From an uncultured Spirochaetota bacterium (GTDB lineage Bacteria; Spirochaetota; Spirochaetia; SZUA-6; Fen-1364), in assembly GCA_963745235.1 (NCBI GenBank), contig CAVUXE010000028.1:93171-157170 (forward strand): 64,000 nucleotides of DNA, read 5' to 3'. The number at the start of each line of letters is the position of its first letter. The first letter of the stretch is position 1. The notes beneath the pieces were generated by a model that saw nothing but the letters and a program-made list of their open reading frames with translations, was not told the origin of the DNA and did no database searches. This document shows positions 5,021-64,000 of this stretch, one piece after another. The position numbers and the translations under genes were made by a program.

Positions 5021-5035
5021 CTCAGGGGTGCTGAG

Positions 5036-6097: not shown

Positions 6098-6272
6098 CCC
6101 GCCGCGGCGAGGTGCGCGGACGGCGGATACTTCAGTAGACTTTTGCAAACTCCGGCCGTTGGCAGGACGCGCAGCGTATCTCGCAATTCACCAGCGCGTC
6201 ACTGCCCCACGTAGCTTTTCGACGCGCCCACCATCCCCGCTCGTATCGGCTCCCTGCAGGTTCCATACCAGC

Positions 6273-6430
6273 TCATGACTGCACCGACCATGATGACCAG
6301 CGGATGATGGATCGCTCCTCTTCCAGGACTTTTATGTCACGGCGAATCGTGATTTCCTGCAAACCGATATCAATTATCTGACCCTGATGATCAAACCGGC
6401 CTGAAACGGCACTGCAGCGCAGCGGCGGTT
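6273..6430 (-). pseudogene. possible remnant of a DeoR-family HTH (N-terminal part only)
   Basis: The minus-strand ORF 6273..6494 contains ...GLQEITIRRDIKVLEEERSIIR, which resembles the DeoR signature VSxxTIRRDLxxLEexGlixR. A stop follows where the effector domain should begin. Confidence 0.3.
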
Positions 6431-6482
6431 GTGCCAAACGTATCTTGCATATCCCAAATGTGTTAGGTATGCTCCGACAAAA

Positions 6483-7286: not shown

Positions 7287-7303
7287 AGAACGTGCGCCAG
7301 GGA

Positions 7304-8921: not shown

Positions 8922-9275
8922 CAAAATGACTTCGTTCCTCCCGCGCACTGCGTTGGGGCGACTGTCGTCCTCTCTATTATTATCGTTCGGAAAGTGTCTC
9001 AGCGTGACTGCGGCGGAGTCGAATATTGTTCGACAGCTCTTCAACCAGATCTTTTGGAGAATATCGCGGGGTCCCAGCACGTCACCCATCGGTGACGTGT
9101 CCAGCCCACGGTGCTCCGCGCCGATTCAGGAAAATGACGCTTGCCGTTTGAGGGCTTTTGGCCCGTCGTGAAAGTGCCACAAAGTGTCCTAACCCCTTAC
9201 TGGAGAATGAATAGAATTAGAGAGAAATGGTATCCCTCGGCAAAAGTCGGGCGAATTGGCCTCTTGCCTTTTTTC

Positions 9276-9303
9276 TTGCGTATCCAACGATGTATGCTAT
9301 AAT
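9276..9303 (+). promoter_or_regulatory. candidate sigma-70 promoter TTGCGT-16 nt-TATAAT for the 9.4-17.1 kb sugar locus
   Basis: TTGCGT lies at 9276..9281 and a perfect TATAAT at 9298..9303, about 65 nt upstream of the ATG at 9370. It is overlapped by three GTAT(C/G)C repeats at 9280, 9292 and 9304. Confidence 0.5.
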
Positions 9304-9369
9304 GTATCCATCAAATCTTAACTGGCTTCGGAGTTCGGAAGAATTGCCGGGCCGGCTTGGAGGTGGAGA

Positions 9370-10608
9370 ATGAAGCGTAGAAGGTCTCTGTTTCTGGTTG
9401 CATTACTGTGCTTTGTGGCAACGGTGAGCATGGCGGACAGTGTGACGCTACGTTGGATCAGTTGGTGGGGAGAGGACACACTCAAGCCTATTGCTCAAGG
9501 GTTTGAAAAGACCCATCCAAACATCAAGATCGAGATCCAATCATATCCGTTTGATGCGTACTTCAACAAAGTGCAGGCGGATATGGCGGCCAAGACGTCG
9601 TCTATTGACATTCTGGCTGTGGATGCACCATCGGTTGCGGAGTATACAGTTCGTCACTATGTCCTCCCGATGGACAAATACTTCACCAAGGTCGAGCTGA
9701 CCTCTTCAATTGCTTCAGCTGTCCTGGATGCCAGCTATTACAAGGGGACGCTCTCGGCATTACCCACTTTCAGCTCAAACCATGTTCTCTATTACAACCC
9801 GGCGATCTTCAAGGCCGCCGGCGTTACGCCTCCCAGCCCTGACAAGCCTTGGACCTGGGAACAAGTCGCCAAGGCGGCACAGCAATTGACGCAGAGAGAG
9901 AATGGGACAACGAAGGTTTGGGGCCTGCTTTTTGAGCAAGTGAATCAACCCTACGAAATCCTGCCCCTGCCCGAGTCTTTGGGCGCGGATCCTCTGGATT
10001 TCACTTCGCAAGGGTGGCTCAAAGCCATGCAGTTCTACTACGACTGCTACAATACCTGGAAGATCTCTGCCAACGTCGCAAACTCCAACATCACTGACCA
10101 GCTTTTTGCCAGTGGCCACGCGGCAATGATGGCGGGCGGCGAGTGGAACGCAGTTGGTTGGGCGAAGGACAAAGTCAGTTTCAGCTATGCGCCGTATCCA
10201 TACTTCGAGGGCGGAAAGGTTGTCGTAGCAACCGATGCTCAACATCTTGGCATCGCAGCCTACAGCAAGCACGTTCCCGAGGCCGTGGAGTTCATCAAAT
10301 ACGCGACTCTTGGAGAGGGGCCGACGGTTGAGTTCGAGGCTGGCGCAAGCGTCCTCTTTCCGGCGAACATCCCGCTTCTGAACAAAATCGAGAAGGACCC
10401 CAAGTACGCAACATTTCCGTGGAGTATCTATCGGCTAGCAAACCGACAGGTCTCCTCCACCGTGCCGCGACCCGTGACCCCCTTCTGGGACGCATATCAG
10501 ACACTCACCTACCAGATGTTCAACAATATCAGCACCGGGACCAGCCCGGAGACCGCTCTCCAGGCAGCCCAGGAACAGTGGAAGCGGGCCACGCAGTCAA
10601 CGTACTGA
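9370..10608 (+). CDS. ABC transporter extracellular solute-binding protein (family 1, carbohydrate)
   Basis: 412 aa with signal peptide MKRRRSLFLVALLCFVATVSMA and RBS GGAGGTGGAG. Two MalF/MalG-type permease genes follow. Confidence 0.9.
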   Translation: MKRRRSLFLVALLCFVATVSMADSVTLRWISWWGEDTLKPIAQGFEKTHPNIKIEIQSYPFDAYFNKVQADMAAKTSSIDILAVDAPSVAEYTVRHYVLPMDKYFTKVELTSSIASAVLDASYYKGTLSALPTFSSNHVLYYNPAIFKAAGVTPPSPDKPWTWEQVAKAAQQLTQRENGTTKVWGLLFEQVNQPYEILPLPESLGADPLDFTSQGWLKAMQFYYDCYNTWKISANVANSNITDQLFASGHAAMMAGGEWNAVGWAKDKVSFSYAPYPYFEGGKVVVATDAQHLGIAAYSKHVPEAVEFIKYATLGEGPTVEFEAGASVLFPANIPLLNKIEKDPKYATFPWSIYRLANRQVSSTVPRPVTPFWDAYQTLTYQMFNNISTGTSPETALQAAQEQWKRATQSTY

Positions 10609-10649
10609 CACAAGTTGGGTCGAGCTGCTGAAGAAAATGCCTATTCCTG

Positions 10650-10674
10650 CCTCGCTGAATCCTTGTCAGCGAGG
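10650..10674 (+). other. stem-loop (9-bp stem, 7-nt loop) after the binding-protein gene, with no U-tract
   Basis: CCTCGCTGA-atccttg-TCAGCGAGG, read directly. It sits in the 208-nt gap between the binding-protein and permease genes. The position fits an mRNA-stabilising or partial-termination element. Confidence 0.45.
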
Positions 10675-10816
10675 GGGGATAGGCCGCAGAGCTCAGTGAG
10701 GTACTGCCGCGCAGGCGAACAGCCTCCGCGTTGGTGAGCACAGGCCGTTCCTCGCCATTCATGTGCTTCCCTGACGTTGCGAGCGGTCTGAGACAGAAGA
10801 CGAGGTCACGCTAAAC

Positions 10817-11713
10817 ATGAGGTTCAGAGTTGCCAGTGGAACTCTTGGCAAAAAGGATCGTTTCGTTCCCTATCTCTTTCTCTTACCCGCAGTCGCTGGC
10901 TTGCTCATATTTGAGGTGTTGCCCTTTTTCATGGCGATTTCGGAAAGCCTCACCCCAGAGAGCCAGCTGACTGGACTCAGGCATTTTGCGGGCCTTGCCG
11001 TCTATCGCGTCCTCCTTACTGATCCAGACTTTATTCGTTCAATACTGGTCACCTTGCTGTGGGCGGTGATCGTTAATCCCGTCCAAGTCACGATTTCTCT
11101 GGTTCTCGCGCTTGCCATATTCAAAAGAGGGATGCGGAGCACCGTTTTCAGGATACTGTATTTCCTCCCGGTCGGAAGCTCGCTCGCCGTGACGTCAATG
11201 ATCTGGGGGGTGATACTCGACCCCAACGGCGGTCTTGCGAATGGCGTGCTTCGGGTCTTTGGCATTCATTCCCAGCCTTTCTTGACTTCGCCGCATGAGG
11301 CCTTGTGGTCCATCGTTCTTCTGGCGAGCTGGACCGGCTGTGGCTACTGGATGGTGTTTTTTCTTGCCGGACTGAATGACATAGATCCTGCGCTCTACGA
11401 AGCGGCAAGCATAGACGGTGCCGGTACGATCGGAAAGGTTTTCTACATAACACTTCCCATGCTCATGCGAATGATCGCCTTTGTCTTCATTTCGGACACG
11501 GTGAGCAACTTCCTGATGTTCGCTCCACTGGAAATCCTGACAAAGGGAGGGCCGAACGGCTCTACGGATTTCCTTGTGTACTATGCATATTCGCATGCCT
11601 TTTCGATGAACCAAATGGCAATTGGGCAGGCAGCGTCGGTAATCTTGCTGCTGATCGTCATGGGGTTTGTAGCAGTGGAGCTACGGCTCATGCGCGCGGA
11701 AAGTGGAGACTGA
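10817..11713 (+). CDS. carbohydrate ABC transporter permease (MalF-like)
   Basis: 298 aa, multi-TM, with EAA loop YEAASIDGAGTIGKVFYITLPM. Confidence 0.9.
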   Translation: MRFRVASGTLGKKDRFVPYLFLLPAVAGLLIFEVLPFFMAISESLTPESQLTGLRHFAGLAVYRVLLTDPDFIRSILVTLLWAVIVNPVQVTISLVLALAIFKRGMRSTVFRILYFLPVGSSLAVTSMIWGVILDPNGGLANGVLRVFGIHSQPFLTSPHEALWSIVLLASWTGCGYWMVFFLAGLNDIDPALYEAASIDGAGTIGKVFYITLPMLMRMIAFVFISDTVSNFLMFAPLEILTKGGPNGSTDFLVYYAYSHAFSMNQMAIGQAASVILLLIVMGFVAVELRLMRAESGD

Positions 11714-11718
11714 CGCAA

Positions 11719-12576
11719 ATGATAGCGAATGGTTTGGCTTCCCAAATGGGCAGGTCGACGCTTGGAGTCGTGCGGACCCTGCTGATGATCATGTACGCAT
11801 TGTTCTCGATCACTCCTCTCCTTTGGATGCTGGTCGGATCGTTCAGTACTGATCAGAGCATTTTTGCCAACTCGACGCCGTTTTCGCTCAGGGCTTTCGT
11901 CCCCTATCCATTCACGTTGGAAGGGTATGCCTTGCTCATTGCCAGCGGCTTCTTTCGCGCGCTGCAGAACACGGTGATTGTCACACTCGGGGCCCTCATC
12001 CTCGGACTATTTGTCAATTCGTTGGCTGGTTTCACTTTTGCGCTGTTCGACTTTCCTGGAAAGGGGCTTCTTTTCGCACTCGTCATGGTGACGATGGCCT
12101 TGCCCCCGGATGTGCTGGCAATTCCTCTCTACACGCTCATTTATGGCATTGGATGGGTTGGCAAACTTCGAGCCTTGATACTGCCGGCCGTTGCCAGCGG
12201 GTTTGTCATATTCCTGTTGCGGCAAGCTGTCCTCGGAATTCCCCGTTCGCTCATTGATGCATCGCGGATAGACGGTCTAGGATGGTTTCAAATCTATTGG
12301 CGGATTGCACTTCCTCTCATACGAGGAAGCTTGATCGGGGGCGGCCTGATCATTACGATCAGCATTTGGCAGTCTTTCCTTTGGCCTTTGCTGGTTGGAA
12401 CAACATCAGCGGCGGAATTGATCCAGGTTTCGCTGGCTTACTTTCAACAGGAGCACACGACGCTCTGGAATGCGATATTTGCTGGAAGCGCCATCGCCGT
12501 GATGGTGCCGACGATACTCCTGGGAGTCATGCAACGCCACTTTCGTCCCAGCCTTCTGACTTCCGGTAATAAGTAG
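11719..12576 (+). CDS. carbohydrate ABC transporter permease (MalG-like)
   Basis: 285 aa, multi-TM, with EAA loop IDASRIDGLGWFQIYWRIALPL. Confidence 0.9.
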   Translation: MIANGLASQMGRSTLGVVRTLLMIMYALFSITPLLWMLVGSFSTDQSIFANSTPFSLRAFVPYPFTLEGYALLIASGFFRALQNTVIVTLGALILGLFVNSLAGFTFALFDFPGKGLLFALVMVTMALPPDVLAIPLYTLIYGIGWVGKLRALILPAVASGFVIFLLRQAVLGIPRSLIDASRIDGLGWFQIYWRIALPLIRGSLIGGGLIITISIWQSFLWPLLVGTTSAAELIQVSLAYFQQEHTTLWNAIFAGSAIAVMVPTILLGVMQRHFRPSLLTSGNK

Positions 12577-48246: not shown

Positions 48247-50142
48247 TCACTGCGCGTCTCTCAGTTCCTGGTATTGCGCAGTCTTTCTCAGCTTGTCGTT
48301 CTGCGCGGCGTAGTCATACGCAGTCTTTCCATCATGGGATTTTGATTTCCCATTCGCTCCCGCCTCCAGGAGCACTGAGATCACTCGGGGAGTCTGGTTG
48401 TACCTGGCCGCCATCATCAAGGGTGTCAAGCCGTTCGTGTCCCGGACTTCGATCTTTGCCCCCGCTTTGAGAAGCGCGGAGATGACGTCTGCGCTCTTGT
48501 TGTCGATGGCTGCCACCATCAACGGCGTCCAGCCATTCCTGTCCTGACTTTCGATATCTGCCCCGGCTGTCAGAAGCGCGGAAATGACGCCGGCGTTGCG
48601 GCTATGCATCGCGGCATACATGAGTGGCGTCCAGCCCTTCGCGTCCCGCGCGTCGACCTTTCCCCCCGCTTTGAGGAGCGCTGTGATGACCTCTGGGTTC
48701 TGGTTGTGCCTCGCCGCCACCATGAGCGGCGTCCGGCCGTCTTTGTCAGGTTCGTTGATATTCGCCCCCGCTCTCACGAGCATCGAGACGACCTCGGGAT
48801 TCGGATTGGACCTGGCCACTGCCATCAAGGACGTCCTCACCTCCCTGGTGGGCCGGTCCACCTTTGCCCCAGACTGCAGAAGCGCGGAGATGACCTCGGG
48901 ATTCGGATTATTCAGGGCCGCGCGGGTCAAAGGTGTCAGGCCCTCCTCGTCCCGGTCATCGACCTTCGCGCCCGCCTGCAGAAGCACTGTAATGACCTTG
49001 GAGTTCAAGGTATCAGAGGCTGCTATCATGAGGGGTGTCAATCCCTCCCCGTTGCGCTGGTCGACCTTTGCACCAGCATGGATGAGCGAGCTGACCACGT
49101 CTGGATCAGGGTTGTGAGAGACAGCCACTGTCAAGGGCGTCCGGCCTTCCGCGTCCTGCTCGTCCACTTTGGCACCTGCCTGCAGGAGCGCGGAGATCAC
49201 GTCCGCGTTCGGGCTGGAATAATCCGCCGCCCATAGCAAGGCCGTCCGGCCCTGTTCATCCCGGTCGTCGACTTTCGCTCCCGCCTGCAGGAGCGCAGAG
49301 ACAACCTCGGGGTCCGGGTTATGAGAGACTGCCATCAGGGGCGTTCTGCCCTTTGCGTCCCGCGCCTCGACTGGCGCTCCCGCCCGCAGCAGTGTCGTGA
49401 CGACCTTGGGATTATGATTGTGCAGGACCGCCATCATCAGGGGTGTCCAGCCGTCCGGGTCCTGCTCGTCGATCTTCGCTCCCGCCTGGAGGAGCGCTGA
49501 AATGACCTCGGGGTTCGGATTGTTCAGGGCCGCAATCATCAAGGGGGTCCGGCCACCAGGGTCCTGGTCCTCTACTTTCGCTCCTGCCTCCAGGAGCACG
49601 TTGATGACCTGCGGGTCCTCGCTCATGAAGGATGCAGTCATCAAGGGTGTCCAACCGTCGATGTCCCGCTCTTCGACCATGGCCCCCGCCTGCAGAAGCG
49701 CGCTGATCACCTCGGGGTTCCGGTTGTGCAACACCGCTATCATCAAAGGCGTCCAGCCGTTCTTGTCCCGGTCGTTTATGTTGGCGCCCGCTTTCACGAG
49801 CGCTGCGACGACCCCTGGATCCTGGTTGTAGGCTGCTGCCAACATCAGGGGGGTCTGGCTGCTCACTTCACGGTCGTCAATTTTCGCTCCTGCGTTCAAG
49901 AGCAGGGAGATGACGTGCGGGTCGCGATTGCTCCTGGCCGCGAGGATGAGGGGGGTCTGGCCATTCTGGTCGCGCTCCTCGATGTTGACCCCCGCTTGAA
50001 GGGCAGTCTTGATTTGTTCCAGCGTTCCGTCTTTCACCAGCTCCAGCAAGCTCAGAGCAGATGAATCCAACGATGCTGCAAGCAGCCCAAGGACGGCAAA
50101 GCTCATGATCAGCTGCCCGGAGCGCCTTCCCACGATCCCCAT
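48247..50142 (-). CDS. exported ankyrin-repeat protein (about 17 repeats)
   Basis: ORF 48247..50193. The likely signal peptide is MGIVGRRSGQLIMSFAVLGLLAASLDSSALS, and the start is uncertain (50106-50193). About 17 units follow of the type D..G.TPLM.AA..N.NPEVISALLQAGAKVD. Confidence 0.85.
   Translation of the reverse strand: MGIVGRRSGQLIMSFAVLGLLAASLDSSALSLLELVKDGTLEQIKTALQAGVNIEERDQNGQTPLILAARSNRDPHVISLLLNAGAKIDDREVSSQTPLMLAAAYNQDPGVVAALVKAGANINDRDKNGWTPLMIAVLHNRNPEVISALLQAGAMVEERDIDGWTPLMTASFMSEDPQVINVLLEAGAKVEDQDPGGRTPLMIAALNNPNPEVISALLQAGAKIDEQDPDGWTPLMMAVLHNHNPKVVTTLLRAGAPVEARDAKGRTPLMAVSHNPDPEVVSALLQAGAKVDDRDEQGRTALLWAADYSSPNADVISALLQAGAKVDEQDAEGRTPLTVAVSHNPDPDVVSSLIHAGAKVDQRNGEGLTPLMIAASDTLNSKVITVLLQAGAKVDDRDEEGLTPLTRAALNNPNPEVISALLQSGAKVDRPTREVRTSLMAVARSNPNPEVVSMLVRAGANINEPDKDGRTPLMVAARHNQNPEVITALLKAGGKVDARDAKGWTPLMYAAMHSRNAGVISALLTAGADIESQDRNGWTPLMVAAIDNKSADVISALLKAGAKIEVRDTNGLTPLMMAARYNQTPRVISVLLEAGANGKSKSHDGKTAYDYAAQNDKLRKTAQYQELRDAQ
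48289..50046 (-). repeat. ankyrin-repeat coding array, period about 99-102 nt
   Basis: The 33-34-aa periodicity runs through the ORF. The plus-strand shadow ORFs show the same periodic pattern. Confidence 0.8.
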
Positions 50143-50242
50143 TCTCCATTTTTCCGGGCTCCTCGTCGATAGGCAATCTCCCCGTGCCGTCAACGGCCTT
50201 CATGGAAACCTTCAGTCAACCGGCCCTGCTTTCAACCCCGGT

Positions 50243-51460
50243 TCAGGAGCGGTTCCTCTTGGATGTAACGTCGATATAGACCGCCGCGATGATGACAAGG
50301 CCGCGGATGATGTACTGCCAGAAGACGTCCATGTTCATGACGCTCATCCCGTTCAACAGGCTGGCGATGATCAGCGAACCGACGATGGCGCCGAAAATGG
50401 TCCCCTCCCCGCCCATGAGGCTCGTTCCTCCGATGACGCAGGAGGCGATGGCGTCCAGCTCATAGTTGACGCCTCCGCCGATGGTGCCTGCGGCCACGTA
50501 GCCGGTCAGGACGATCCCGGAAACTCCCGTCAAGAGCCCCATGAGGATGAACACCATGAACACGAGGCGGTTGATGTTGATTCCAGAAAGCCGGGTGGCT
50601 TCCTTGTTGCCGCCCAGCGCGTAGGTGTAGCGGCCGAACTTCGTGTTGTTGGCAAGGTACGTGAAGATCACGGCAACCACGGCCATGAGGAGAACGGGGT
50701 TGGGGATGCCGCGGTAGCTGTTCATTATATAGATGAAAAAAATCACGAGACATGAGATGAGAAGGATCCTCAGCAGGTCCTGGTACACCGGCACGAGCTT
50801 GAATCCGAACTCCTTTCTCTGCTGCCTGCCGCGCAACACAAAGAAAACCACCAGCACCACGACAATAGCGCCCAGAATCCACCCCACCATCGCGGGCACG
50901 TACCCCTGGGCAATGAGCCGGAAATCATCCTCGTAGATCGTCAGCGTTTTCCCCTGGGTGACGGCAAGCACTCCTCCCCGAAAGATCAACTGCCCTCCGA
51001 GGGTCACGATGAAGGCGGGGACTCCGAGGTAGGCAATGATCGTGCCCTGCCAGACTCCGACGATCAGGCCGACAAGAAGGGCAGACACGATTGCGATGAT
51101 CGTATTGAGAACGCCCAGAGGTCCCGCCGCCATGGCGGGAAAAATGCCGTGCAGGATGGCCGGCATGGTATTCAACTGCAGGTAAGCGGTCACCGCGCTC
51201 ACCAGCCCGGTCGAGGAGCCGACGGACAGGTCGATGTTCCCCGTAATGATGACCAGCACCATGCCGATCGCCAGGAATGACACGATCGTGGTCTGGCGGA
51301 AAAGGTTCGAAAGGTTCCGCGGTTCGAAGAAAACCCAGTGGGTGAGGCTGCCAAAGAGAAGCCAGATCAGCGCAAGCGCGATGATCATGGTGTACGTCCG
51401 AATGTTCGTTCGGATACCGCGCGTGATGGTCGCCACCGAAGTCGTCTTGGTTGCCAGCAT
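50243..51460 (-). CDS. xylH: D-xylose-type sugar ABC transporter permease
   Basis: 405 aa. Long blocks match my recollection of E. coli XylH: RNLSNLFRQTTI, GNIDLSVGS, VPAFIVTLGG, GGNKEATRLSGIN, ELDAIASCVIGGTSL and FWQYIIRG. Confidence 0.8.
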   Translation of the reverse strand: MLATKTTSVATITRGIRTNIRTYTMIIALALIWLLFGSLTHWVFFEPRNLSNLFRQTTIVSFLAIGMVLVIITGNIDLSVGSSTGLVSAVTAYLQLNTMPAILHGIFPAMAAGPLGVLNTIIAIVSALLVGLIVGVWQGTIIAYLGVPAFIVTLGGQLIFRGGVLAVTQGKTLTIYEDDFRLIAQGYVPAMVGWILGAIVVVLVVFFVLRGRQQRKEFGFKLVPVYQDLLRILLISCLVIFFIYIMNSYRGIPNPVLLMAVVAVIFTYLANNTKFGRYTYALGGNKEATRLSGININRLVFMVFILMGLLTGVSGIVLTGYVAAGTIGGGVNYELDAIASCVIGGTSLMGGEGTIFGAIVGSLIIASLLNGMSVMNMDVFWQYIIRGLVIIAAVYIDVTSKRNRS

Positions 51461-53015
51461 TACCTCACCTCACTCGTTGCGCCTGCCAGACCTGTCGCCA
51501 TGGCCATGAGCTTTTCCTGCGTCGCATCGCGCCGGTCGATGATTCCGGCGTTTTCCCCCTCGTGCATGACGAGGATCCGGTCGCTCATGCCCAGGATCTC
51601 GGGAAGCTCGGAGGACACGAGGATGATGGCGACCCCTTCCTCCGCAAGCTTGTTCATGAGCTTGTAGATCTCGTACTTCGCCCCGACGTCGATCCCCCGG
51701 GTCGGTTCGTCCAGGATGAGAACCTTCGGTTCGGACATCAGCCATTTCGCAATGACGACTTTCTGCTGGTTTCCGCCGCTCAGGCTGTTGACGAGGGCCT
51801 GCAACGTCGGCGTCTTGATGGCAAGATACGTCGCCATGGATTCGCACGCTTTGAGCTCCGCGTTCCTGTTGATGGAGAGGAACCCTGAGAATCGCTCCAG
51901 GTTCGGAAGCGACATGTTCTTGAGGATGGATTGATCGACGACGAGCCCCATGCGCTTGCGATCCTCCGGAACGAGGCTGATCCCGTTGTTCATGGCGTCG
52001 CGCGCGGAATCTATCTCCACGGGAGCACTGTCGAGAGTGACCTCTCCGCTGCGGTTCTGGCCGTATTCGCCGAAAATCGTCGTGACCAGCTCGCTGCGGC
52101 CCGAGCCCATGAGGCCGGCAATACCGAGGATCTCCCCCTTGCGCACGGAAAAGGAGACGTTCTTCACAACTTTCTTTCCCGCCTGATACGGGCTGTCCAC
52201 GGACAGGTCTTTGACTTCGAGGACGACTTCCCCGGGGGACCGCGTCGCCGGTGGGGAATCGTTCCCGCATCTCCCGCCCGACCATCATCGAGATGATCTT
52301 TTCGTAGGTTGCATCTTTGGTGGCCAGGGTCCCGACGACACCCGCCGTCTCGAAGAACCGTGATGGTGTCCGTGATGCGGAAGAACTCCTCGACCTTGTG
52401 CGAGATGTAGATGCAGGTGACGCCGCGTTGCTTGAGATGGGCAAGGATGCCCATGAGGATATCGACTTCGGCCTCCGTGAGGGCGGAGGTGGGCTCGTCC
52501 AGGATCAGCACCCGCGCGTTCTCCGAAAGGGCCTTGGCGATTTCCACGATCTGCTGCTGGCCGACGCCCAGGTTGGTCACGACGGAGGACGGGACAATGC
52601 GAAGGTTGTATTCATCGAGAACCTTTTGGGTCTCATGGTAGAGCCTGTTCCAGTTGATCACCCCGCTTGCTCCCGGTTCGCGGCCCAGGAAGATGTTCTG
52701 CCCCACGGTCATGAGCGGTATCAATGCGAGCTCCTGATAAACGATCGCTATTCCCTTTTCAATGGCCTGTCGTATCGAATCCTTCCCGAAGCGCAGCTCC
52801 TCCCCGTTGTAGACGATGCGCCCCTCATAGGAGTCGAAGGGATACACGCCCGCGAGGATCTTCATCAGCGTGGATTTTCCCGCGCCGTTTTCCCCGCAGA
52901 TCCCGTGGATCGTTCCTCGCTTCACGGAAAAAGAGACGTCGCTCAGAGCGACCACGCCGGGGAACTCCTTGGTCACCTGTTGAATGTCAAGGATGATGTC
53001 ATTCATCTCGCTCAT
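51460..53015 (-). pseudogene. xylG: D-xylose-type sugar ABC transporter ATPase (two NBDs), two frame disruptions (about 52341-52343 and 52230-52238)
   Basis: Built from ORFs 52164..53054, 51470..52444 (middle segment) and 51460..52200. It has [30 protein letters not shown], which is XylG-like. The junctions are ...TVLRDGG / VVGTLATKDATYEKIISMMVGRE and ...TGDAVP / GEVVLEVKDLSVDSPY. Both lie in G/C runs. Confidence 0.8.
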
Positions 53016-53128: not shown

Positions 53129-54212
53129 CTACGGTCTCGGCCGGCTTCTCGAGTCCGGGACGTCCCGATACACGTCGTCATAGCTCTGGAAACCGCTCTT
53201 GACGATCTGATCGTAGACATTGGACTTGTCCACCTGGACGACCGGGAGGAACTTGCAGGGCACCTGGCCCATCTGCTTCTTGTCCAACGTGAGGTCGGCA
53301 AGGTTGTACATCTTCAGCCCTTCGATCTGCTGTCCCTTTGCAAGCTTGATGGCCATGTCGATGGCCATCGGCGAGAGCAGGCGGACGTCCTTGTAGACGG
53401 TGACGGTCTGCTCGCCCTGCACGATGGAGTTGCAGCCGGCGGCAGTGGCGTCCTGACCCGAAATCGGCACCTTGCCGGCCAACCCCTGGGCCTTCATGGC
53501 CTGGAGCGCGCCGCAGCGCGGTCCCATCGTTGGAGGCGACAACGGCATCGATCTTGTTGTGCTGCGCCGTGAGGACGTTCTCCATGATCTTGGTTGCCGT
53601 CGGGGGATCCCAGTTGTCTACCCACTGGTCAGCGACGATCTTGATCTTGCCGCTGTCGATGAGCGGCTTCAGGACCTCCATCTGGCCGTTGCGGACGAGG
53701 ACGGCGTTGTTGTCCGTCGGGCTTCCGCCGAGGAGCATGAAGTTGCCGTGGTCCACGACCTTGATGACTCCGCGGGCCTCGGCGCGTCCGACCTCGGTGT
53801 TGTCGAACGAGATGTAGGCGGAGATGTTCGTCGACTTGATGAGCCGGTCGTAGGCGATGCACTTCACCCCGGCCTTTACCGCCTCATCCACCGCCGTGGC
53901 TGCCGCCGCGCCGTCTTCTGCAATGATGATGATGACGTTCACGCCCTGCAGCGCCATGTTCTCGATCTGGTCGTTCTGCAGCTTCGCGTCATGGTTGGCA
54001 ACCTGCGAGACAACTTGCGCGCCCTGGGCTGCGGCCAGCTTTGTCATGAGGGCCTGTTCGACCGGCCAGCGCTCGGTCGCGAAGTCAGAGAAGGAGAGGC
54101 CGATCTTGATGGCCCCACCCTTGGCGGGAGCCTTCTGCTCGCCCGTTCCAGACGCAAAGATCATGCCGCCCAGGAACAGGACGGTGAGCAGTACGAGATA
54201 CGCTTTCCTCAT
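53129..54212 (-). pseudogene. xylF: D-xylose-binding periplasmic protein, frame disrupted near 53505-53522
   Basis: Built from ORFs 53178..54263 and 53129..53548. The start MRKAYLVLLTVLFLGG at 54212 follows AAGGAGG. Strongly XylF-like blocks are YISFDNTEVG, GGSPTDNNA, GQMEVLKPLIDSGKIKIVADQWVDNW and KIDAVVASNDGTA. The junction is ...NDGTAL / GALQAMKAQGLAGKVPISGQD. Confidence 0.85.
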
Positions 54213-54246
54213 AAGGAAACCTCCTTGAATTGAGCTACCCATCGAA

Positions 54247-54262
54247 TGCAATTCATGTGCCA
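54247..54262 (-). promoter_or_regulatory. sigma-54 promoter TGGCAC-N5-TTGCA upstream of xylF
   Basis: Plus-strand TGCAATTCATGTGCCA is TGGCACatgaaTTGCA on the minus strand, a full match to the -24 GG / -12 GC consensus. It lies about 35 nt upstream of the xylF ATG. Confidence 0.8.
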
Positions 54263-54452
54263 AGTGTCTTCCCTGAATCGGTTGTACTAATTTGTTCCTG
54301 GAGAAGCAATTAAGGGAAGCGTTCCGGGTGGCAGCCGCGCGGCGGCGGGGGCACTGAGTAGACCCTTACCCATCACGGCTTTCTCATATTGTACTCATTT
54401 CCTCACGGGCATAGGACATTTGACCGCTTGTGCGGCAGTTTATCATGACGCT

Positions 54453-55769
54453 ATGAGCTTTACGATTCTCATCGTCGATGACGAACGGGAGGTATGTCTC
54501 TCCCTTGGCGAAGTGCTCCGGTCCAAAGGCTACATGACCTTGCATGAGGATGAACCGCTCAAGGTGCTCTCTCTTCTGGAGCGAGAGAAGGTTGACGTGA
54601 TACTCATGGACGTCCGCATGCCGGCGCTGGGCGGCATAGATCTCCTCAAGACAATCAGAAAGACGCGGCCCCTTGTCCCCGTCATCATGATTTCCGGGTA
54701 CGCCTCCGTGGAGAGCACGGTGAAGGCAATGAAGTATGGCGCTTTGAACTATTTCGCAAAGCCCGTGCAGCTGCCGGAGCTGCTGCGGGAAATCCGCCAC
54801 GTGGAGAGCTCCGTACGCATCAAGAGGCCCATTCCTGATGCGCAGACCATCGTCACCCAGAATTGGAGAATGGACGAGGTCCTCCGCCTGACGGAAAAAG
54901 CGGCTCCCACCGAGGCATCCGTGATAGTCCTTGGTGAGAGCGGCACGGGCAAGGAGCTGGTCGCAGATCTCCTTCATCACGCGAGCAAGCGCAAGCACAA
55001 GTCGTTGATCAAGGTCAATTGCGCAGCCATTCCCGACAACCTGCTGGAGAATGAGATGTTCGGGCATGAGAAAGGGGCCTTCACCGATGCGCAGAGCCAG
55101 CAGAAGGGAAAGATCGAGCTGGCGGATGGAGGCACGATCTTCTTCGACGAGATCGGTGACATGAGCCTGCAGACACAGGCCAAGATGCTTCGCGTGGTGC
55201 AGCAAAAGCATTTCACCCGGCTGGGGGGTTCGGTCCCCATCAGCGTGGATTTCCGCATCATAGCGGCGACGAACAAGAACATCGAAGAAATGATCGCCCA
55301 GGGAAACTTCCGCGAGGATCTCTACTATCGGCTCTCCGTCATCACGCTGAAGTTGCCTGCCCTTCGCGACCGAAAGGAGGACATCCTTCCCCTTGCCCTC
55401 CATTTCGCGAGGGAGTTCAACCAGGCCTACGGGAAGAGAGTGCTTGGCATCTCGGAGAGCGTGAGCGGGATGCTCGGGGAGCACACCTGGCCGGGCAACG
55501 TGCGCGAGCTGAAGAACATCATGGAGCGGGCAGTGATTTTCTGCGAAACCGAGCTGATCGAGCCCCGGGATCTTCCTGAGCAGTACCGCACCGTCAATCG
55601 ACGCGCTGACGGCTTCGAGGCCATTCGGGAGTTCTCCTCGGAGAAGGCACGCTCCGTGATCCGCGAGGCGCTGCTGCAGACGAACGGCATCAAGGGGGAG
55701 GCGGCGCGACTCCTGAAAATCACCCGCAAGACCCTCTACAACAGGATGAAGCGACTGAACCTGACATGA
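54453..55769 (+). CDS. sigma-54-dependent response regulator (NtrC family: REC-AAA+-Fis HTH)
   Basis: REC domain: ILIVDDEREV...VDVILMDVRMPALGG. AAA+ domain: VLGESGTGKELVA, EKGAFTDA (GAFTGA variant) and GGTIFFDEIGDM. HTH: AARLLKITRKTLYNRMKRL. The start is taken at MSFTIL. Confidence 0.9.
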   Translation: MSFTILIVDDEREVCLSLGEVLRSKGYMTLHEDEPLKVLSLLEREKVDVILMDVRMPALGGIDLLKTIRKTRPLVPVIMISGYASVESTVKAMKYGALNYFAKPVQLPELLREIRHVESSVRIKRPIPDAQTIVTQNWRMDEVLRLTEKAAPTEASVIVLGESGTGKELVADLLHHASKRKHKSLIKVNCAAIPDNLLENEMFGHEKGAFTDAQSQQKGKIELADGGTIFFDEIGDMSLQTQAKMLRVVQQKHFTRLGGSVPISVDFRIIAATNKNIEEMIAQGNFREDLYYRLSVITLKLPALRDRKEDILPLALHFAREFNQAYGKRVLGISESVSGMLGEHTWPGNVRELKNIMERAVIFCETELIEPRDLPEQYRTVNRRADGFEAIREFSSEKARSVIREALLQTNGIKGEAARLLKITRKTLYNRMKRLNLT

Positions 55770-57607
55770 GCACATATCCTGCGCCGCCTTTGCTCGCTCC
55801 CTGTCACCAGTGCCTCCTGCGGATGCGCAATATCCACGTCTCATACAACGGCGTGCCGGCCTTGAAAGGGGTGGATTTCGACCTGTACGAGGGGGAGATC
55901 CACGCGCTGGTGGGCGAGCACCGCGCGGGCAAGTCATCCCTGGTCAAGCTGATGAGCGGCGCGGTCCAGAAGAGCCAGGGAGAGATCATCTACCGGGGGA
56001 CGGAGGTGAAATCCTTTTCCCCGGAGAGCGCGATCCGCGCGGGCGTGGGGATGGTCTATCAGAATCTCAATGTGCTTCCGAGCCTCAACGCCATAGAGAA
56101 CATCTTCGCCGGGCAGATGGTTCATCGCAGATTCCTGAGGCTCGACTACCGGCGCATGTTCGTGACCGGCCGAGAGCTCTTCAAACGAATGAACCTGGAG
56201 ATCGACCTGGAGACGCCGCTGCGCCGCCTGTCGCAGGCACAGCAGCTCATGGTCGAGTTCGCCCGGATGCTCTTTCTGAATCCGCAACTCTTGATTCTCG
56301 ACGAGCTTGCCAACAAGCTCACGCCGGAAGAGATGGGAACCATCTACGAAATCATGTTCGACTTCCGCAAGCAGGGGAAGAGCATCATCTACATAACCCA
56401 CGACATAGAGGAGACGCTCAAGGTCGCTGACCGCGTGACCATCCTGAAGGACGGCTACCGCCGGGGGACGGAGCGCGCGGCGGATCTGGATCGCTTCCGC
56501 CTCTACGCGCTCACCTACTCCTTCGCGCTGGGCAAGAAGGAGATCGAAGCCAACCGCATGCAGTTCTACATGTTGAAGCGATACAGCGAAGACTTCATCC
56601 GCCACCTCTCCGCCGGCCTCGTCATCCTGGACGCAGCCGACGCCGTGCAGCTTGCCAACTTCGCGGGGATCGAGATCATGCAGCCCGGTCCCGAGCAGCT
56701 GGCCACGCATTCCATCCAGGAGCTGCTCGCCGCGCTGCGCTTCCCCAACGCCGGTGAGATCCGCGAAAGGGTCGCCGCGAGGGAGGAGTATGTGTGGGAG
56801 GAGATCCGCATCGACGAAGACACACTGGTTCGCGTCGACGTCTTCCCGCTCCGTGATGACGAAAGCTCTTTCATCGGGACCGCGGTTCTGATCCATGACG
56901 TCTCGATAGATCGCTACATGAAGGACTACATCATCAGGGCCGAGAAGATGGCAACGGTGGCTGAGGTGGCCGCGGGGGTGGCCCACGAGATCAACAATCC
57001 TCTCTTCATCATCCGCAACTACGTGGAGCTTCTGAAGGACAAGAGGCTCGATCCCGATGGGAAGGAGAAGCTGCGGAAGATCCAGAAGGAGCTCGGCCGG
57101 ATCTGCGAGATCACCGAGAGTCTTCTCTCATTCTCCAAGGTCAAGGAGCTGCCGGAAAGTCGGACGAACCTGGTTGAGGTTGTCGACGATGCGATACTCC
57201 TCCTGCAGCACAATGTCTCCAAGAAGAACATCCGCCTTGACAAGGATCTGTGCGAGCAGCGCGTGGAAATCGTGGGCGACGAAAACCGCCTGAAACAGCT
57301 TTTCCTGAACCTGCTTCTCAACAGCATCGACGCCGTGCTTGATGGCGGCACTGTACGGGTCAGGGTGGCCGCCAGCAGGGAGGACCGTTTCGCGGAAGTG
57401 ACGGTCTCCGACAATGGGTACGGTATCCCCGCCGAAATTCAGGGCAAGATCTTCGATCCCTTCTTCAGCACGAAGGTAAACAAGAAGAACGTGGGCCTGG
57501 GTCTGTCGATTTGTCAGCACATCGCCGAGGCGCATGAGGGGATCATCACCTTCACGAGCGTGCCCGGAGAGCTCACCGAGTTCAAGGTGAAGCTGCCGCT
57601 CCGATAA
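55766..57607 (+). CDS. cytosolic hybrid protein: N-terminal ABC-transporter nucleotide-binding domain fused to a PAS-like region, HisKA and HATPase_c (histidine kinase)
   Basis: 613 aa with no TM segment. The ATGA overlap with the regulator stop indicates translational coupling. The NBD has GEHRAGKSS (Walker A), MVYQN (Q-loop), LSQAQQLMVEFARML (degenerate LSGGQ), LLILDELANKLT (Walker B) and IYITHDIEE (H-loop). The kinase has AAGVAHEINNPL (H-box), LLNSIDA, VSDNGYGIP and GLGLSI. Confidence 0.85.
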   Translation: MSTYPAPPLLAPCHQCLLRMRNIHVSYNGVPALKGVDFDLYEGEIHALVGEHRAGKSSLVKLMSGAVQKSQGEIIYRGTEVKSFSPESAIRAGVGMVYQNLNVLPSLNAIENIFAGQMVHRRFLRLDYRRMFVTGRELFKRMNLEIDLETPLRRLSQAQQLMVEFARMLFLNPQLLILDELANKLTPEEMGTIYEIMFDFRKQGKSIIYITHDIEETLKVADRVTILKDGYRRGTERAADLDRFRLYALTYSFALGKKEIEANRMQFYMLKRYSEDFIRHLSAGLVILDAADAVQLANFAGIEIMQPGPEQLATHSIQELLAALRFPNAGEIRERVAAREEYVWEEIRIDEDTLVRVDVFPLRDDESSFIGTAVLIHDVSIDRYMKDYIIRAEKMATVAEVAAGVAHEINNPLFIIRNYVELLKDKRLDPDGKEKLRKIQKELGRICEITESLLSFSKVKELPESRTNLVEVVDDAILLLQHNVSKKNIRLDKDLCEQRVEIVGDENRLKQLFLNLLLNSIDAVLDGGTVRVRVAASREDRFAEVTVSDNGYGIPAEIQGKIFDPFFSTKVNKKNVGLGLSICQHIAEAHEGIITFTSVPGELTEFKVKLPLR

Positions 57608-57681: not shown

Positions 57682-57954
57682 ATGAAGCGAAGGGTTTTGA
57701 GGAATCTTGTCATTGGCGCAATCATAGTGGGACTGCTTTCAGTCACCGTCTCGGTCTTCAGCCAGCAGGTGAGCGGCGAGCGCCATCCAAACCTCGCGGC
57801 GGCGCAGCAGTTCATTCAGGACGCCATAGGCAAGCTGACGGAGGCCCAGAAAGCAAATAAGTACGACATGAAAGGGCACGCCGCAAAGGCAAAGCAGCTT
57901 CTCGATGAGGCGTATCATGAAATCTGGCTGGCGGCGCAAGCGGCAAACAAGTAG
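57682..57954 (+). CDS. small exported helical protein, paralogue 1 (90 aa, Sec signal peptide)
   Basis: RBS AAGGAGGG. The signal peptide is MKRRVLRNLVIGAIIVGLLSVTVSVFS. The mature part is HPNLAAAQQFIQDAIGKLTEAQKANKYDMKGHAAKAKQLLDEAYHEIWLAAQAA. Confidence 0.75.
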   Translation: MKRRVLRNLVIGAIIVGLLSVTVSVFSQQVSGERHPNLAAAQQFIQDAIGKLTEAQKANKYDMKGHAAKAKQLLDEAYHEIWLAAQAANK

Positions 57955-57969
57955 CTGAGGCGTGGAATC

Positions 57970-58221
57970 ATGAAGCTGTCATCTTTCATCCGGCTGACTA
58001 TCAGCTGTATGCTGGCGGGCGTCCTGCTCAGCTGCGCTACTGTTGGACACCCGAATCTTGCAGATGCTGAGCGGTTTGTTCAGCAGGCAATTGACAAGGT
58101 CTCCGACGCCCAGAAGGCAAACAACTTCGACATGAGAGGCCATGCCGCCAGGGCCAGGCAACTCATGCAACAGGCTATCGAAGAGATCAGACTTGCCGGA
58201 CAAGCCGCAAGCGGCTACTAG
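57970..58221 (+). CDS. small exported helical protein, paralogue 2 (83 aa, lipobox LLSC)
   Basis: The leader is MKLSSFIRLTISCMLAGVLLSCAT. The mature part is HPNLADAERFVQQAIDKVSDAQKANNFDMRGHAARARQLMQQAIEEIRLAGQAA, about 60 percent identical to paralogue 1 by hand alignment. Confidence 0.75.
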   Translation: MKLSSFIRLTISCMLAGVLLSCATVGHPNLADAERFVQQAIDKVSDAQKANNFDMRGHAARARQLMQQAIEEIRLAGQAASGY

Positions 58222-58238
58222 TGGATTGCAGCGTTGAC

Positions 58239-58268
58239 GACCCCTGTCCTCGTTGACAGGGGTCTTTT
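58239..58268 (+). terminator. rho-independent terminator (10-bp stem GACCCCTGTC / GACAGGGGTC, loop CTCGTT, then TTTT)
   Basis: Read directly. It lies immediately after the second small-protein gene. Confidence 0.8.
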
Positions 58269-61809: not shown

Positions 61810-64000
61810 TTGAAGGATTCGAAGCCTCTGTTCGCCCAACATATCAGCGCATATGGAATAGCCGTGGCTGCGGTGGCGGCAGCATTTGCGGTTCGACATG
61901 CTCTGTCCCTGCTCGTCGGGCATGGGCTGCCGCCCTTCATCACCTTCTATCCTGCTGTCATGCTTATCGGGCTTCTGGCGGGGATGGGGCCCGGGTTGCT
62001 TGCGAGCACCGGTGCAGCCCTGGTGACGGTCTTCTGGATCTTCCCCGCCGAGGGCCACGTCCGAAACACGCTGGCCGCTGATGCGCTGGGGTTGGCTCTC
62101 TTCTCCTCCATGGGAGTTTTCATGAGCGTCGTTGCCGAGCTCTACCGGAGAGCGAGGCAGCGGGCAGAAGACTACCGGCAAGAGATGTCCCTGCGTGAGA
62201 GCGAGGCGAGATTCTCTACCGTGTTTCAGTCCAGTCCGGTCGGCATGAGCATCACGGGCGTGGCCGATGGGCGGTACCGTGACGTCAATGAGGCTTTCGC
62301 AAGCCTGTTCGGCTACACGAGGAAAGAAGCAGTTGGCCGCACGTCGCTGGAGCTGAACCTGTGGGTTTCGACGAAGGACCGAGACAGTCTTCTCCGCGCG
62401 CTGCGAGAGCACGGCAGCGCGCGGAATTTCGAGGGGCGTTACCGCAGGAAATCCGGAGAAACTTTGACTGCCCTCGTCACGGCGGAAACAATAGAGATAC
62501 CGGTGAGCGCTGCTACTGGACGATCTTCCAGGACATCACCGAGTGGAAACGCGCGGAGGAGAAGTTCCGGCTCGTGGTGGAAACGGTCCAGACCGGGATG
62601 ATCATGGTGAATGGTGAAGGAGAGATCCTTCTTGTGAATGCGCAGGTGGAACGGCTCTTCGGTTACAGTCGTTCAGAGCTGCTTGGCCTCCCCATCGAGG
62701 TTTTTATTCCCGAGCGTTTCCGCTCGAGCCACCCCGGGCATCGAGCCGGGTTTTTCGCCCAGCCGCAGGCTCGCTCCATGGGGGCGGGCCGGGACCTGCA
62801 CGGGCTGCGCAAGGACGGGAGCGAGTTCCCCGTGGAGATCGGACTGAGTCCCTTGGAGACCGCGGAGGGCATCCGGGTGATGGCCTCCGTCATCGACATT
62901 ACAGAGCGCAAACGCGTTGAGACCGTCCTGCGGGAAAGCGAAGAGCGCTTTCGCGGGACTCTGGAGAACATGCTGGAAGGCTGCCAGATAATCGGTTTCG
63001 ACTGGCGATACATCTATATCAACCCGGCGGCGGAGGCGCACAACCGTCGACCGAAGGAGGAGCTCCTGGGGAGCCGGTACATGGACATGTGGCCCGACAT
63101 CGAGGCGACAGGGGTGTTCGCGGTCATTCGACGCTGCATGGAAGAGCGCGTTCCCCAGGCCATGGAAAACGAGTTCACCTTTCCCGATGGGACCGAGGGC
63201 TGGTTCGACCTGCGGATGTCTCCCGTGCCGGAGGGGGTCGTCATACTCTCCTATGAAATAAGCGAGCGCAAGCGGTCGGAGAAGGAGATTCGCACTCTGA
63301 ACGCTGAGCTTGAGCGTCGCGTGCAGGAACGCACGGCGGAGCTGGAAGCGGCAAACAAGGAGCTGGAGGCGTTCGCGTACGCGGTCTCGCATGACCTTCG
63401 CGCCCCGCTGCGCGCGCTCAGCGGTTTCAGCCACGCGCTCCAGGAGGATTATGCGGCGGCACTGACGGGGGAAGCCGGCGAATACCTGGACCAGATCTCC
63501 CAGGCCAGCGTGAACATGGGAGAGCTGATTGACGGAATCCTGAGGCTCTCCCGCTGCACCCGCGGCGAGATGCAGCGCCAGGACGTTGATCTTTCGGCCC
63601 TGGCAGAGGGGATCATGAAAGACCTTGCCAGGGCGGAGCCCGGACGCCGCGTGGTCTGGGCAGTCGAGCCGGGCCTGACCGCCCGCTGTGACGCCAAGTT
63701 GATGGAGGTAGCCCTGGGCAACCTTCTTGCGAACGCCTGGAAGTATACGGCGCTCACATCCCAGCCGACCATCCGGTTCAGCAGCGAAACACTCGATGGA
63801 GAAACCTGGTTCTGCGTGACTGACAACGGCGCAGGGTTCGACATGAAGCACGCCGCCAGGTTGTTCCAAGCCTTTCAGCGTCTTCATCGCCAGGATGAGT
63901 TTCCTGGAATCGGCATCGGGCTCGCAACGGTTCAGCGCATCATCCGTCGGCATGGAGGCGCCATCCGCGCCGCAGCCGAGCCGGGAAAAGGGGCCGCCTT
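61810..64000 (+). pseudogene. multi-PAS sensor histidine kinase with N-terminal DUF4118-like membrane domain; frame disrupted near 62500; 3' end beyond the window
   Basis: Built from ORF 61810..62601 plus my hand translation from about 62503 to 64000, which stays open. The junction is ...TAETIEIP / [22 protein letters not shown]. Three PAS modules are followed by the H-box [13 protein letters not shown] and the HATPase blocks [17 protein letters not shown] and GIGIGLA. Confidence 0.8.

Follow-up and report, generated by a model that had tools for sequence, protein, structure and literature searches.

A soluble histidine kinase with an N-terminal ABC nucleotide-binding domain beside a xylFGH-like operon of an uncultured Spirochaetota bacterium: a possible transporter-coupled sensor

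Sensor histidine kinases are usually thought to perceive their signals through periplasmic or membrane domains, or through cytoplasmic domains of the PAS/GAF type. Some described systems also involve the nucleotide-binding domain (NBD) of an ATP-binding cassette (ABC) importer. In PstSCAB-PhoU-PhoR and MalK-MalT, the state of the importer NBD is read by a regulatory protein; PhoU contacts the PAS domain of PhoR, and the regulatory domain of MalK contacts MalT. In KdpD, an N-terminal cytoplasmic ATP-binding module of the P-loop type modulates signaling. Here we describe a locus in a stretch of 64,000 nucleotides from an uncultured Spirochaetota bacterium (assembly GCA_963745235.1, contig CAVUXE010000028.1, positions 93,171 to 157,170; hereafter the window), in which an intact open reading frame (ORF) at 55766..57607 on the forward strand encodes a soluble sensor histidine kinase of 613 amino acids (aa) with an N-terminal ABC NBD. 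The kinase gene overlaps that of an NtrC-family regulator, and a xylFGH-like sugar-transporter operon diverges from the pair. Judged from its sequences, this NBD-kinase, well supported as a family, constitutes a new input-domain class for two-component sensors, and it is probably a new form of transporter-coupled sensing as well; an ABC NBD would add a class to the sensory domains listed above.

The BceS-BceAB "flux-sensing" modules of Firmicutes contain a kinase that relies on an ABC transporter for its signal (PMC12070737; PMC11109136). BceS has no extracellular sensor, perceives via the ABC transporter and controls the genes of that transporter, a scheme that the present locus would share: its kinase has no extracytoplasmic sensor of its own and adjoins an ABC transporter, and regulation of that transporter is suggested by sigma-54 promoters. 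However, BceS is embedded in the membrane, touches the BceB permease with its transmembrane (TM) helices and has no NBD, whereas the kinase described here is soluble, carries a transporter-type NBD in its own chain, and is neither a two-TM intramembrane-sensing kinase nor partnered with a transporter of the BceAB/MacB type. BceAB is a MacB/Bce-type exporter, whereas the transporter here is a CUT2 importer, and the Bce regulator is OmpR-type and sigma-70-dependent, whereas the regulator here is NtrC-type and paired with sigma-54.

The XylFII-LytS/YesN system of Clostridium beijerinckii is a three-component xylose sensor (PMC8050422), in which a non-transporting XylF paralogue and a histidine kinase induce xylFGH. 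Two relatives of the present locus, L082 and L089, similarly have a XylF paralogue (XylF2) encoded by the kinase gene. However, LytS is a kinase that spans the membrane several times and binds XylFII directly with a periplasmic four-helix bundle, with no permease or NBD, whereas L082 and L089 encode a permease paralogue along with XylF2 and have a cytoplasmic kinase; no XylF2 is encoded in the window. In the Pst and MalK systems the NBD belongs to the transporter, whereas here it is covalently fused upstream of a PAS-kinase. The KdpD module is not an ABC NBD, and KdpD itself is anchored in the membrane and controls the operon of a P-type ATPase. None of the Bce, XylFII-LytS, Pst and MalK systems has an NBD inside the kinase polypeptide. 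A preliminary description of the window had known of no characterized sensor kinase with an ABC NBD as its input, and our searches agree with it: no description of the NBD-kinase architecture was found in the full-text literature, and sequence and fold searches of the PDB returned no chain spanning both halves of the kinase. In Treponema denticola, only AtcRS and Hpk2/Rrp2 have been characterized, as stated in a 2025 paper, and AtcS is a membrane kinase unrelated to the NBD-kinase family (PMC12070737).

With regard to its output half, the kinase is comparable to AtoS: its C-terminal 345 aa (aa 269-612) align end to end with the PAS-HisKA-HATPase region of AtoS, and the regulator has the REC-AAA+-HTH_8 layout of AtoC, NtrC and ZraR. 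The two differ in that the TM/HAMP N-terminus of AtoS is replaced here by the NBD, and that the target here is a sugar transporter. Orthology to AtoS/AtoC, as implied by names given by JGI, was rejected, the scores being 223.8 versus 646 bits for AtoS (NF008468) and 402 versus 714 bits for AtoC. Besides "AtoS", which is a JGI over-annotation, misleading names of family members in databases include "ATP-binding cassette domain-containing protein" and "branched-chain amino acid transport ATPase".

The exact sequence of the window kinase is that of protein cluster P0001, and all of its parts are encoded on the forward strand. The NBD input module, which is of the CUT2 NBD1 type, occupies aa 17-250 (55814..56515). 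It is followed by an NBD-to-PAS linker (aa 251-282; 56516..56611), which opens with LTYSF after the RLFQ helix, then by a PAS domain (aa 283-378; 56612..56899), a DHp/HisKA domain (aa 379-460; 56900..57145) with the phospho-accepting H407 (codon 56984-56986), and a catalytic ATP-binding domain of the HATPase_c type (aa 461-613; 57146..57604). In Pfam, ABC_tran (PF00005) matches aa 33-181 with 87.7 bits (E 1.4e-24, cut-off 25 bits), PAS_4 matches aa 279-380 with 26.4 bits against a cut-off of 23.1, and HisKA (aa 400-460) and HATPase_c (aa 504-612) score 50.9 and 89 bits, respectively. Direct reading of the NBD gives Walker A GEHRAGKSS, the Q-loop residue Q99, the signature LSQAQQ, Walker B LLILDE and the H-loop ITHD; the D-loop reads NKLT, and neither a canonical SALD D-loop nor an LSGGQ signature is present. 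In the output half, the H-box AHEINNPL, which includes H407, and the N, G1, F and G2 boxes can be read directly. With the H-box histidine in a DHp hairpin, these four boxes and a cognate regulator gene alongside, the protein is a kinase of the HisKA class.

No TM segment was detected in the kinase, whose highest 19-residue Kyte-Doolittle mean is 1.36 and whose AlphaFold2 (AF2) model, made from a 73-sequence alignment, has no TM helices. In this monomer model the NBD (aa 14-250) is confident, with a predicted local distance difference test (pLDDT) value of ~90, the linker (aa 252-281) is of low confidence, and aa 283-378 adopt a PAS fold with a PAS-like beta sheet; the DHp domain consists of two long helices (380-423 and 430-455), and the catalytic domain is also confident. 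Foldseek matched the N-terminal half to NBDs such as LptB, 1ji0, 1g6h and MalK, and the C-terminal half, in support of the PAS and catalytic assignments, to the PAS-kinases YF1 (4gcz) and WalK and to the cytoplasmic domain of ZraS (9jfj). No solved CUT2 ATPase was among the PDB sequence matches. The preliminary description had read from the letters a 613-aa product without a TM segment, a complete N-terminal NBD of the CUT2 first-NBD type with Walker A, Q-loop, Walker B and H-loop, and behind it a PAS-like linker, the H-box AHEINNPL and a complete HATPase domain. Each of these points is borne out, the first by hydropathy and AF2, the NBD type by Pfam, NCBIfam and phmmer, the motifs by their presence where they had been placed, and the output half by PAS_4, HisKA and HATPase_c in Pfam; the Pfam search that had been proposed for ABC_tran, HisKA and HATPase_c scored all three domains.

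The NBD can be traced to a particular class of sugar-transport ATPase. In NCBIfam, aa 17-263 align to positions 1-246, the first NBD, of YtfR, AlsA, AraG, RbsA and XylG. An exhaustive phmmer search with the NBD and linker as query against 1.84 billion representatives found ~20 clusters at 50% identity that share the NBD-kinase architecture, and the best matches outside the kinase family were two-NBD CUT2 ATPases of ~500 aa, aligned at their N-terminal NBD. No other output domain was found in the single-stretch phmmer matches, for which Pfam gives HisKA and HATPase_c. In a neighbor-joining tree with 200 bootstraps, the kinase NBDs are monophyletic (84%) and form two subfamilies (96% and 100%); they cluster weakly (64%) with NBD1 of two-NBD CUT2 ATPases, and NBD2 (100%) and the single-NBD CUT2 ATPases (94%) branch separately from them. 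Most simply, a CUT2 NBD1 would have become joined to a PAS-kinase once, long ago. As a separate observation, the search also returned CUT2 ATPase representatives of 750-900 aa (P0136, P0141, P0158, P0161, P0187, P0190, P0213, P0244 and P0249), and one of the two long ones that were scanned bears Peripla_BP_4, so binding-protein or permease fusions exist in the superfamily.

As the closest sequence relative, CUT2 NBD1 (XylG, RbsA, MglA, GguA, YtfR) shares with the kinase NBD the Walker/Q/H set, an L-S-x-x-Q-Q signature and the consensus after the Q-loop. In contrast to CUT2 ATPases, however, the kinase has no second NBD, its family has GEH[RG]AGKS[ST] in place of the Walker A GENGAGKST, LTYSF, which leads into PAS, stands where those ATPases have a C-terminal MVGR linker, and the signature is further relaxed. 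The signature LSQAQQ had been called degenerate, which holds in the sense that it is non-canonical; as a motif it is not specific to the kinase, although its conservation is more relaxed there, since NBD1 of neighboring CUT2 ATPases is also without LSGGQ (LSVGQQQ, LSIAQVQ and similar). The missing LSGGQ therefore does not exclude the NBD1 subtype. NBD2 of those ATPases has LSGGNQQK, a degenerate Walker A (GxGR[ST]E) and no H-loop histidine. The altered D-loop, on the other hand, is a feature of the kinase family alone.

A search of 5.8 billion proteins yielded at least 120 clusters with 48-100% identity to the kinase. The great majority are full-length, ~590-640 aa, with ABC_tran, usually PAS, HisKA and HATPase_c, and a few are truncated fragments of 449-483 aa; the named cluster sources are metagenome-assembled genomes (MAGs) of Spirochaetia, Spirochaetales or Treponemataceae. 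Distant full-length members with ~30% identity came from a one-genome-per-species scan, and include a candidate-division KSB3 MAG, Thalassospirochaeta, Sphaerochaeta and a "T. denticola" MAG. For the scan of genome contigs the generic pattern GVAHEINN was used, and true family members accounted for 7 of the 80 among the matches listed. More than 135 full-length members were recovered, mostly from Spirochaetota plus the one KSB3 MAG. The family appears to be the standard regulator of CUT2 importers in many Spirochaetota, that is, Spirochaetia from gut, sediment and bioreactor, Sphaerochaeta and Treponemataceae, in which the regulation of carbohydrate uptake is almost unstudied.

Across an alignment of 73 family members, G50, G55, K56, Q99, D179 and E180 do not vary at all, and H212 is present in 72 of the sequences. 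Since the key residues of Walker A, Q-loop, Walker B and H-loop show almost no variation, the ATP site of the kinase is, by this measure, kept. The signature retains L155 and Q160 and has lost its glycines, position 158 being variable (alanine in 23 members, glycine in 21, valine in 7, tryptophan in 6, and others). In the output half, H407 and the AHEINNPL H-box, N515/N519, D549-G551-G553, F563/F566 and G577-G579 are invariant in the family, and in the linker region L246, L249 and Y251 are invariant, with T250, S252 and F253 at least 90% conserved. Mean pairwise identity is 61% for the NBD, 45% for the linker, 35% for PAS, 63% for DHp and 55% for the catalytic domain, so that PAS is the most variable domain and the NBD and DHp are the best conserved.

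A site-by-site comparison was made between 135 kinase NBDs and 121 transporter NBD1s. At aa 59-66 (the helix after Walker A) and aa 99-117 (the Q-loop and the next helix), which we take, by homology with MalK, to be the segments that face the membrane domain, consensus and relative conservation are equal in the two groups. The kinase NBDs have lost constraint at K25, G29, V30, D70, E100, A158, Q161 and P181. They have gained it in the D-loop (K184, P187, M190) and in the last strands and the helix that lead into the linker (R232, T235, E236, L241, D242, R245, L249, F253). The pattern indicates that the NBD-NBD interface of the kinase is reshaped and that the exit toward PAS is under strong selection.

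The regulator gene (54453..55769, forward strand) encodes an NtrC-family response regulator and sigma-54 activator with REC, AAA+ and HTH_8 domains (Response_reg 92 bits, Sigma54_activat 232 bits, HTH_8 37 bits, AAA_lid_14 also matched), with the acceptor aspartate in MDVRMP and a Walker A GESGTGKE. Its sigma-54 contact loop is GAFTDA, not the canonical GAFTGA; the same GAFTDA is found in nine of the ten family regulators checked, and GAFTGA in one. The kinase start overlaps the regulator stop by 4 nucleotides (ATGA), as it does in relatives. On the reverse strand, a pattern search located the predicted sigma-54 (-24/-12) promoter of the xylFGH-like operon at 54247..54262, TGGCACATGAATTGCA, the sole perfect TGGCAC-N5-TTGCA site in the 64 kb, where 0.08 would be expected by chance. 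The xylF start follows 35 nucleotides downstream of it, with an AAGGAGG ribosome-binding site in between. The -24/-12 element is kept in L001, a locus of an 83%-identical relative with the same synteny, and footprinting of the window against L001 is informative for this promoter alone. Just upstream of the -24 element, at 54268..54319 (no strand assigned), is an imperfect inverted repeat with CTTCCC...GGGAAG arms of 16 nucleotides that are 81% complementary, a possible candidate regulatory site.

In five related loci, GGGAA-N3-6-TTCCC palindromes, often in pairs 20-30 bp apart, occur 100-230 bp upstream of the sigma-54 promoters (4423/4445 in L002, 2456/2474 in L003, 4896 in L008 at the pair termed L008b, 10912/10944 in L083 and 7598 in L084). 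They are a candidate activator-binding site. When a shared activator site was searched for, this palindrome was absent from the window, L001, L085 and L086.

The genomic context was surveyed for 21 regulator-kinase pairs at 20 loci, namely the window, L001-L008, L082-L091 and one further locus. A CUT2 set of substrate-binding protein (SBP; Peripla_BP_4), ABC ATPase and BPD_transp_2 permease adjoins all 21 pairs, and a -24/-12 element stands directly before the transporter operon in 19. The neighboring binding proteins are XylF-, RbsB-, RhaS- or YtfQ-like, and because pairs adjoin binding proteins of differing type, the input must be sugar-specific. L008 holds two paralogous pairs back to back (4950-11800), each flanking its own CUT2 transporter with its own sigma-54 promoter (4743 and 15599), and in assembly GCA_964490725.1 at least two pairs are spread over different contigs. 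It is strongly inferred, from gene order and promoter motifs, that the regulator, as part of a two-component system, switches on the adjacent CUT2 operon by way of the operon's sigma-54 promoter. The preliminary description is therefore well founded at the level of the transporter-coupled circuit: the ATGA overlap recurs in relatives, the divergent xylFGH-like operon has a sigma-54 site that is not just near-consensus but perfect and unique in the window, and the survey it had proposed finds the architecture together with CUT2 permeases and sigma-54 activators in 21 of 21 pairs, with the promoter element in 19.

Two loci from different assemblies, L082 and L089, whose kinases are 86% identical, have an additional arrangement. 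There, an operon of a TM-anchored XylF paralogue (XylF2) and a XylH paralogue (XylH2) converges on the kinase gene (10842-13254 in L082, 10859-13100 in L089), with no ATPase gene and no sigma-54 promoter, and a complete sigma-54-driven xylFGH adjoins it. The ratio of nonsynonymous to synonymous substitution rates (dN/dS) of xylF2-xylH2 between the two loci is ~0.04, which indicates purifying selection, and the pair is therefore functional. We consider xylF2-xylH2 beside the kinase to be a candidate transporter-like receptor or sensor pair dedicated to it, because a motorless set of binding protein and permease here adjoins a kinase whose own motor domain is unpaired.

How the kinase would be informed about the sugar can be pictured as follows. 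The kinase dimer, formed via the DHp helices, would present two NBD1-like domains, which would attach to the coupling helices on the cytoplasmic side of a dimeric CUT2 permease, XylH in the window and, in some relatives, the ATPase-less XylH2 with its membrane-anchored XylF2. Contact of the permease with its sugar-loaded binding protein would set the ATP-bound NBDs moving tweezers-fashion, as is typical of ABC importers, and the C-terminal strand and helix (YRRGT...RLFQLTYSF) together with PAS would relay this movement to DHp, leading to autophosphorylation. The kinase would then phosphorylate the co-translated NtrC-type regulator, which would switch on the xylFGH-like sigma-54 promoter. Permease and binding protein would in effect be the transmembrane receptor of the kinase, and feedback would arise as XylG, the real ATPase, competes with the kinase.

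That the kinase NBD docks on a CUT2 permease in this way, and reads NBD movements driven by the binding protein and ATP, is the reading we prefer, although we would put it at slightly less than an even chance. The preliminary description had likewise suggested docking on the XylH-type permease, or else dimerization on ATP. Docking has circumstantial support from the Q-loop and the membrane-domain-facing segments, which keep the transporter NBD1 consensus, and from the ATPase-less xylF2-xylH2 operon that is maintained by purifying selection next to the kinase gene in two genomes. Because an NBD has its C-terminus on the side remote from the membrane, as the regulatory domains of MalK and MetN show, a PAS-DHp-catalytic stalk could plausibly be accommodated beneath a docked NBD dimer on steric grounds. 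Several observations weigh against docking. The window has no ATPase-less permease, and the full two-NBD ATPase of its transporter should out-compete the kinase; its xylF and xylG are, moreover, frameshifted in the assembly. The orphan XylF2-XylH2 of L082 and L089 could borrow the neighboring XylG. Compared with NBD1, the kinase has a signature that is more relaxed (positions 158 and 161) and a D-loop changed from DEPTSALT to DE[LIV]S[NS]KLTP, and for these two reasons a canonical ATP-sandwich homodimer is doubtful. The tree of kinase NBDs is incongruent with those of permeases and SBPs; for example, identity matrices place the L001 kinase closest to the kinases of L085 and L086 and the L001 transporter closest to those of L082 and L008b. 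Because of this incongruence there is no sign of a co-diversifying interface, and the regulator-kinase module looks portable among CUT2 systems. Finally, the variability of PAS fits the sensing of specific cytoplasmic ligands equally well.

The broader idea, that an ABC importer scaffold acts as the transmembrane receptor of a soluble kinase in a covalent transceptor design, with a dedicated non-transporting XylF2-XylH2 in some genomes, is held with the same tentativeness, as a possibility not quite evenly balanced. If it is true, it would be a physical answer to how a cell measures the engagement of a substrate with its importer rather than the substrate itself, a question now studied through non-covalent systems such as BceAB-BceS and Pst-PhoU-PhoR. 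Since the fusion is covalent, the family would be convenient for structural and biochemical study of how NBD motion is coupled to signaling.

An alternative in which the transporter is not touched at all places the specificity in PAS: the variable PAS domain would bind the imported sugar or a metabolite derived from it, and the NBD would be an ATP gate, binding ATP or distinguishing ATP from ADP, so that activation occurs only when the cell can afford the importer. The signal would travel by ATP-dependent dimerization or by rotation of a subdomain via the linker. The mean identity of PAS (35%), far below that of the NBD (61%), is what would be expected of a ligand-specificity domain, although PAS domains are generally poorly conserved and variability alone is weak evidence. 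The invariant ATP-binding residues of the NBD also fit, as do the incongruent trees of kinase and transporter and the much stronger conservation of the NBD relative to every component of the transporter; KdpD, in which an N-terminal domain binds ATP and modulates the kinase, would be a precedent. However, this explanation does not say why an ATP sensor should be a CUT2 NBD1 found in CUT2 company only (21 of 21 pairs), why its membrane-domain-facing segments should remain transporter-like, or why an operon of binding protein and permease without an ATPase should accompany the kinase in L082 and L089. We therefore regard it as unlikely, but as the main rival and deserving serious attention. Its extreme form, pure ATP sensing or dimerization without any sugar-specific input, was considered separately and is rejected as unlikely because several paralogous pairs, beside transporters of different specificity, coexist in one genome.

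It is also conceivable that the kinase NBD pairs with the transporter ATPase and not with the permease, either in mixed dimers with single-NBD ATPases or through contact with the LSGGNQQK face of XylG NBD2. The output would then follow the occupancy or cycling of the transporter ATPase, by analogy with the sequestration of MalT by MalK or with PstB-PhoU-PhoR. An NBD with consensus Walker A/B and H-loop and a relaxed signature looks like a half-site in need of a partner's canonical signature, and the D-loop, which lies at the NBD-NBD interface, has gained its family-specific constraint at K184, P187 and M190. Outside the window's own clade, the kinases nearest to the window kinase are those of L085 and L086, and beside their xylF/xylH-like genes these loci encode not a two-NBD XylG but a 265-aa single-NBD ATPase with canonical LSGGQ (5580-6377 in L085, 5423-6217 in L086). 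However, the kinase family accompanies single-NBD and two-NBD ATPases alike, NBD2 of XylG-type ATPases is tethered to its own NBD1, which disfavors an intermolecular partner, and a stand-alone NBD2-like gene was found in no examined locus. Taken together, such partner switching seems improbable.

Less probable still is that the kinase NBD is the real ATPase of the ATPase-less CUT2 importer in L082 and L089, so that kinase activity follows the catalytic cycle of that NBD. The selected xylF2-xylH2 operons by the kinase gene and the conserved catalytic glutamate and histidine are compatible with it, but most loci, the window included, have no ATPase-less permease, a homodimer would have two relaxed-signature sites from which poor hydrolysis is predicted, and the orphan permease could use the neighboring XylG instead. 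Last, the reading of the architecture as a fusion created by assembly or frameshift, or of the NBD as a decaying, functionless relic, has the several 1-nucleotide indels in neighboring window genes in its favor but is effectively refuted, a gene-fusion or assembly artifact being ruled out because more than 135 sequences, drawn from many separate assemblies and sources, have the 600-620-aa architecture with invariant catalytic residues, and the NBD being conserved like DHp with a confident AF2 fold.

On the preferred reading, that the kinase NBD docks on a CUT2 permease, the candidate partner in the window is the product of the intact xylH/GguB-like gene (50243..51460, reverse strand), a permease of 405 aa (BPD_transp_2 115 bits, GguB 350 bits) that is 90% identical to the L001 permease. 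The other two genes of the operon, also on the reverse strand, are broken, while the regulator and kinase genes are intact. The xylF-like gene for a periplasmic sugar-binding protein (53129..54212) is covered by Peripla_BP_4 and the xylF model at only positions 1-196 of 302; it has a 1-nucleotide insertion near 53514, and tblastn with the intact L001 orthologue changes frame at ~53520. The xylG-like gene for a two-NBD CUT2 ATPase (51460..53015) has NBD1 and NBD2 in separate ORFs and frames, with 1-nucleotide insertions relative to L001 near 52343 and 52238, in runs of G and C. In L001, the corresponding xylF/xylG/xylH-like proteins are intact, with 361, 518 and 405 aa. An indel-prone assembly is the likeliest cause of the frameshifts in the window, the alternative being real decay or widespread pseudogenization. 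The preliminary description had discussed the transporter in terms of xylose; it is xylFGH-like, but xylose is not established as its substrate, the intact L001 orthologues scoring just below the equivalog cut-offs (347.3 versus 389.6 bits for the SBP with xylF, TIGR02634, and 674.3 versus 699 for the ATPase with xylG, NF010069).

Elsewhere in the window, a second CUT2 ATPase (1144-2524) is divided across frames, an ORF at 79-1965 joins an NBD2 and a permease in one frame, and an SBP at 2920-3741 and a DUF4118-PAS ORF at 61810-62601 have a truncated appearance. Directly downstream of xylH, on the reverse strand (48247-50193), is a gene for a 648-aa protein that consists almost entirely of ankyrin repeats (at least 14 Ank matches; Ank_2 444 bits), a kind of protein that is unusual for bacteria; L001 has no such gene at the syntenic position. 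After the kinase gene, two small same-strand ORFs of 90 and 83 aa with weak DUF6353 and DUF4398 matches (57682-58264) end at a strong terminator-like hairpin (58239-58264), beyond which an Nramp transporter gene follows on the opposite strand.

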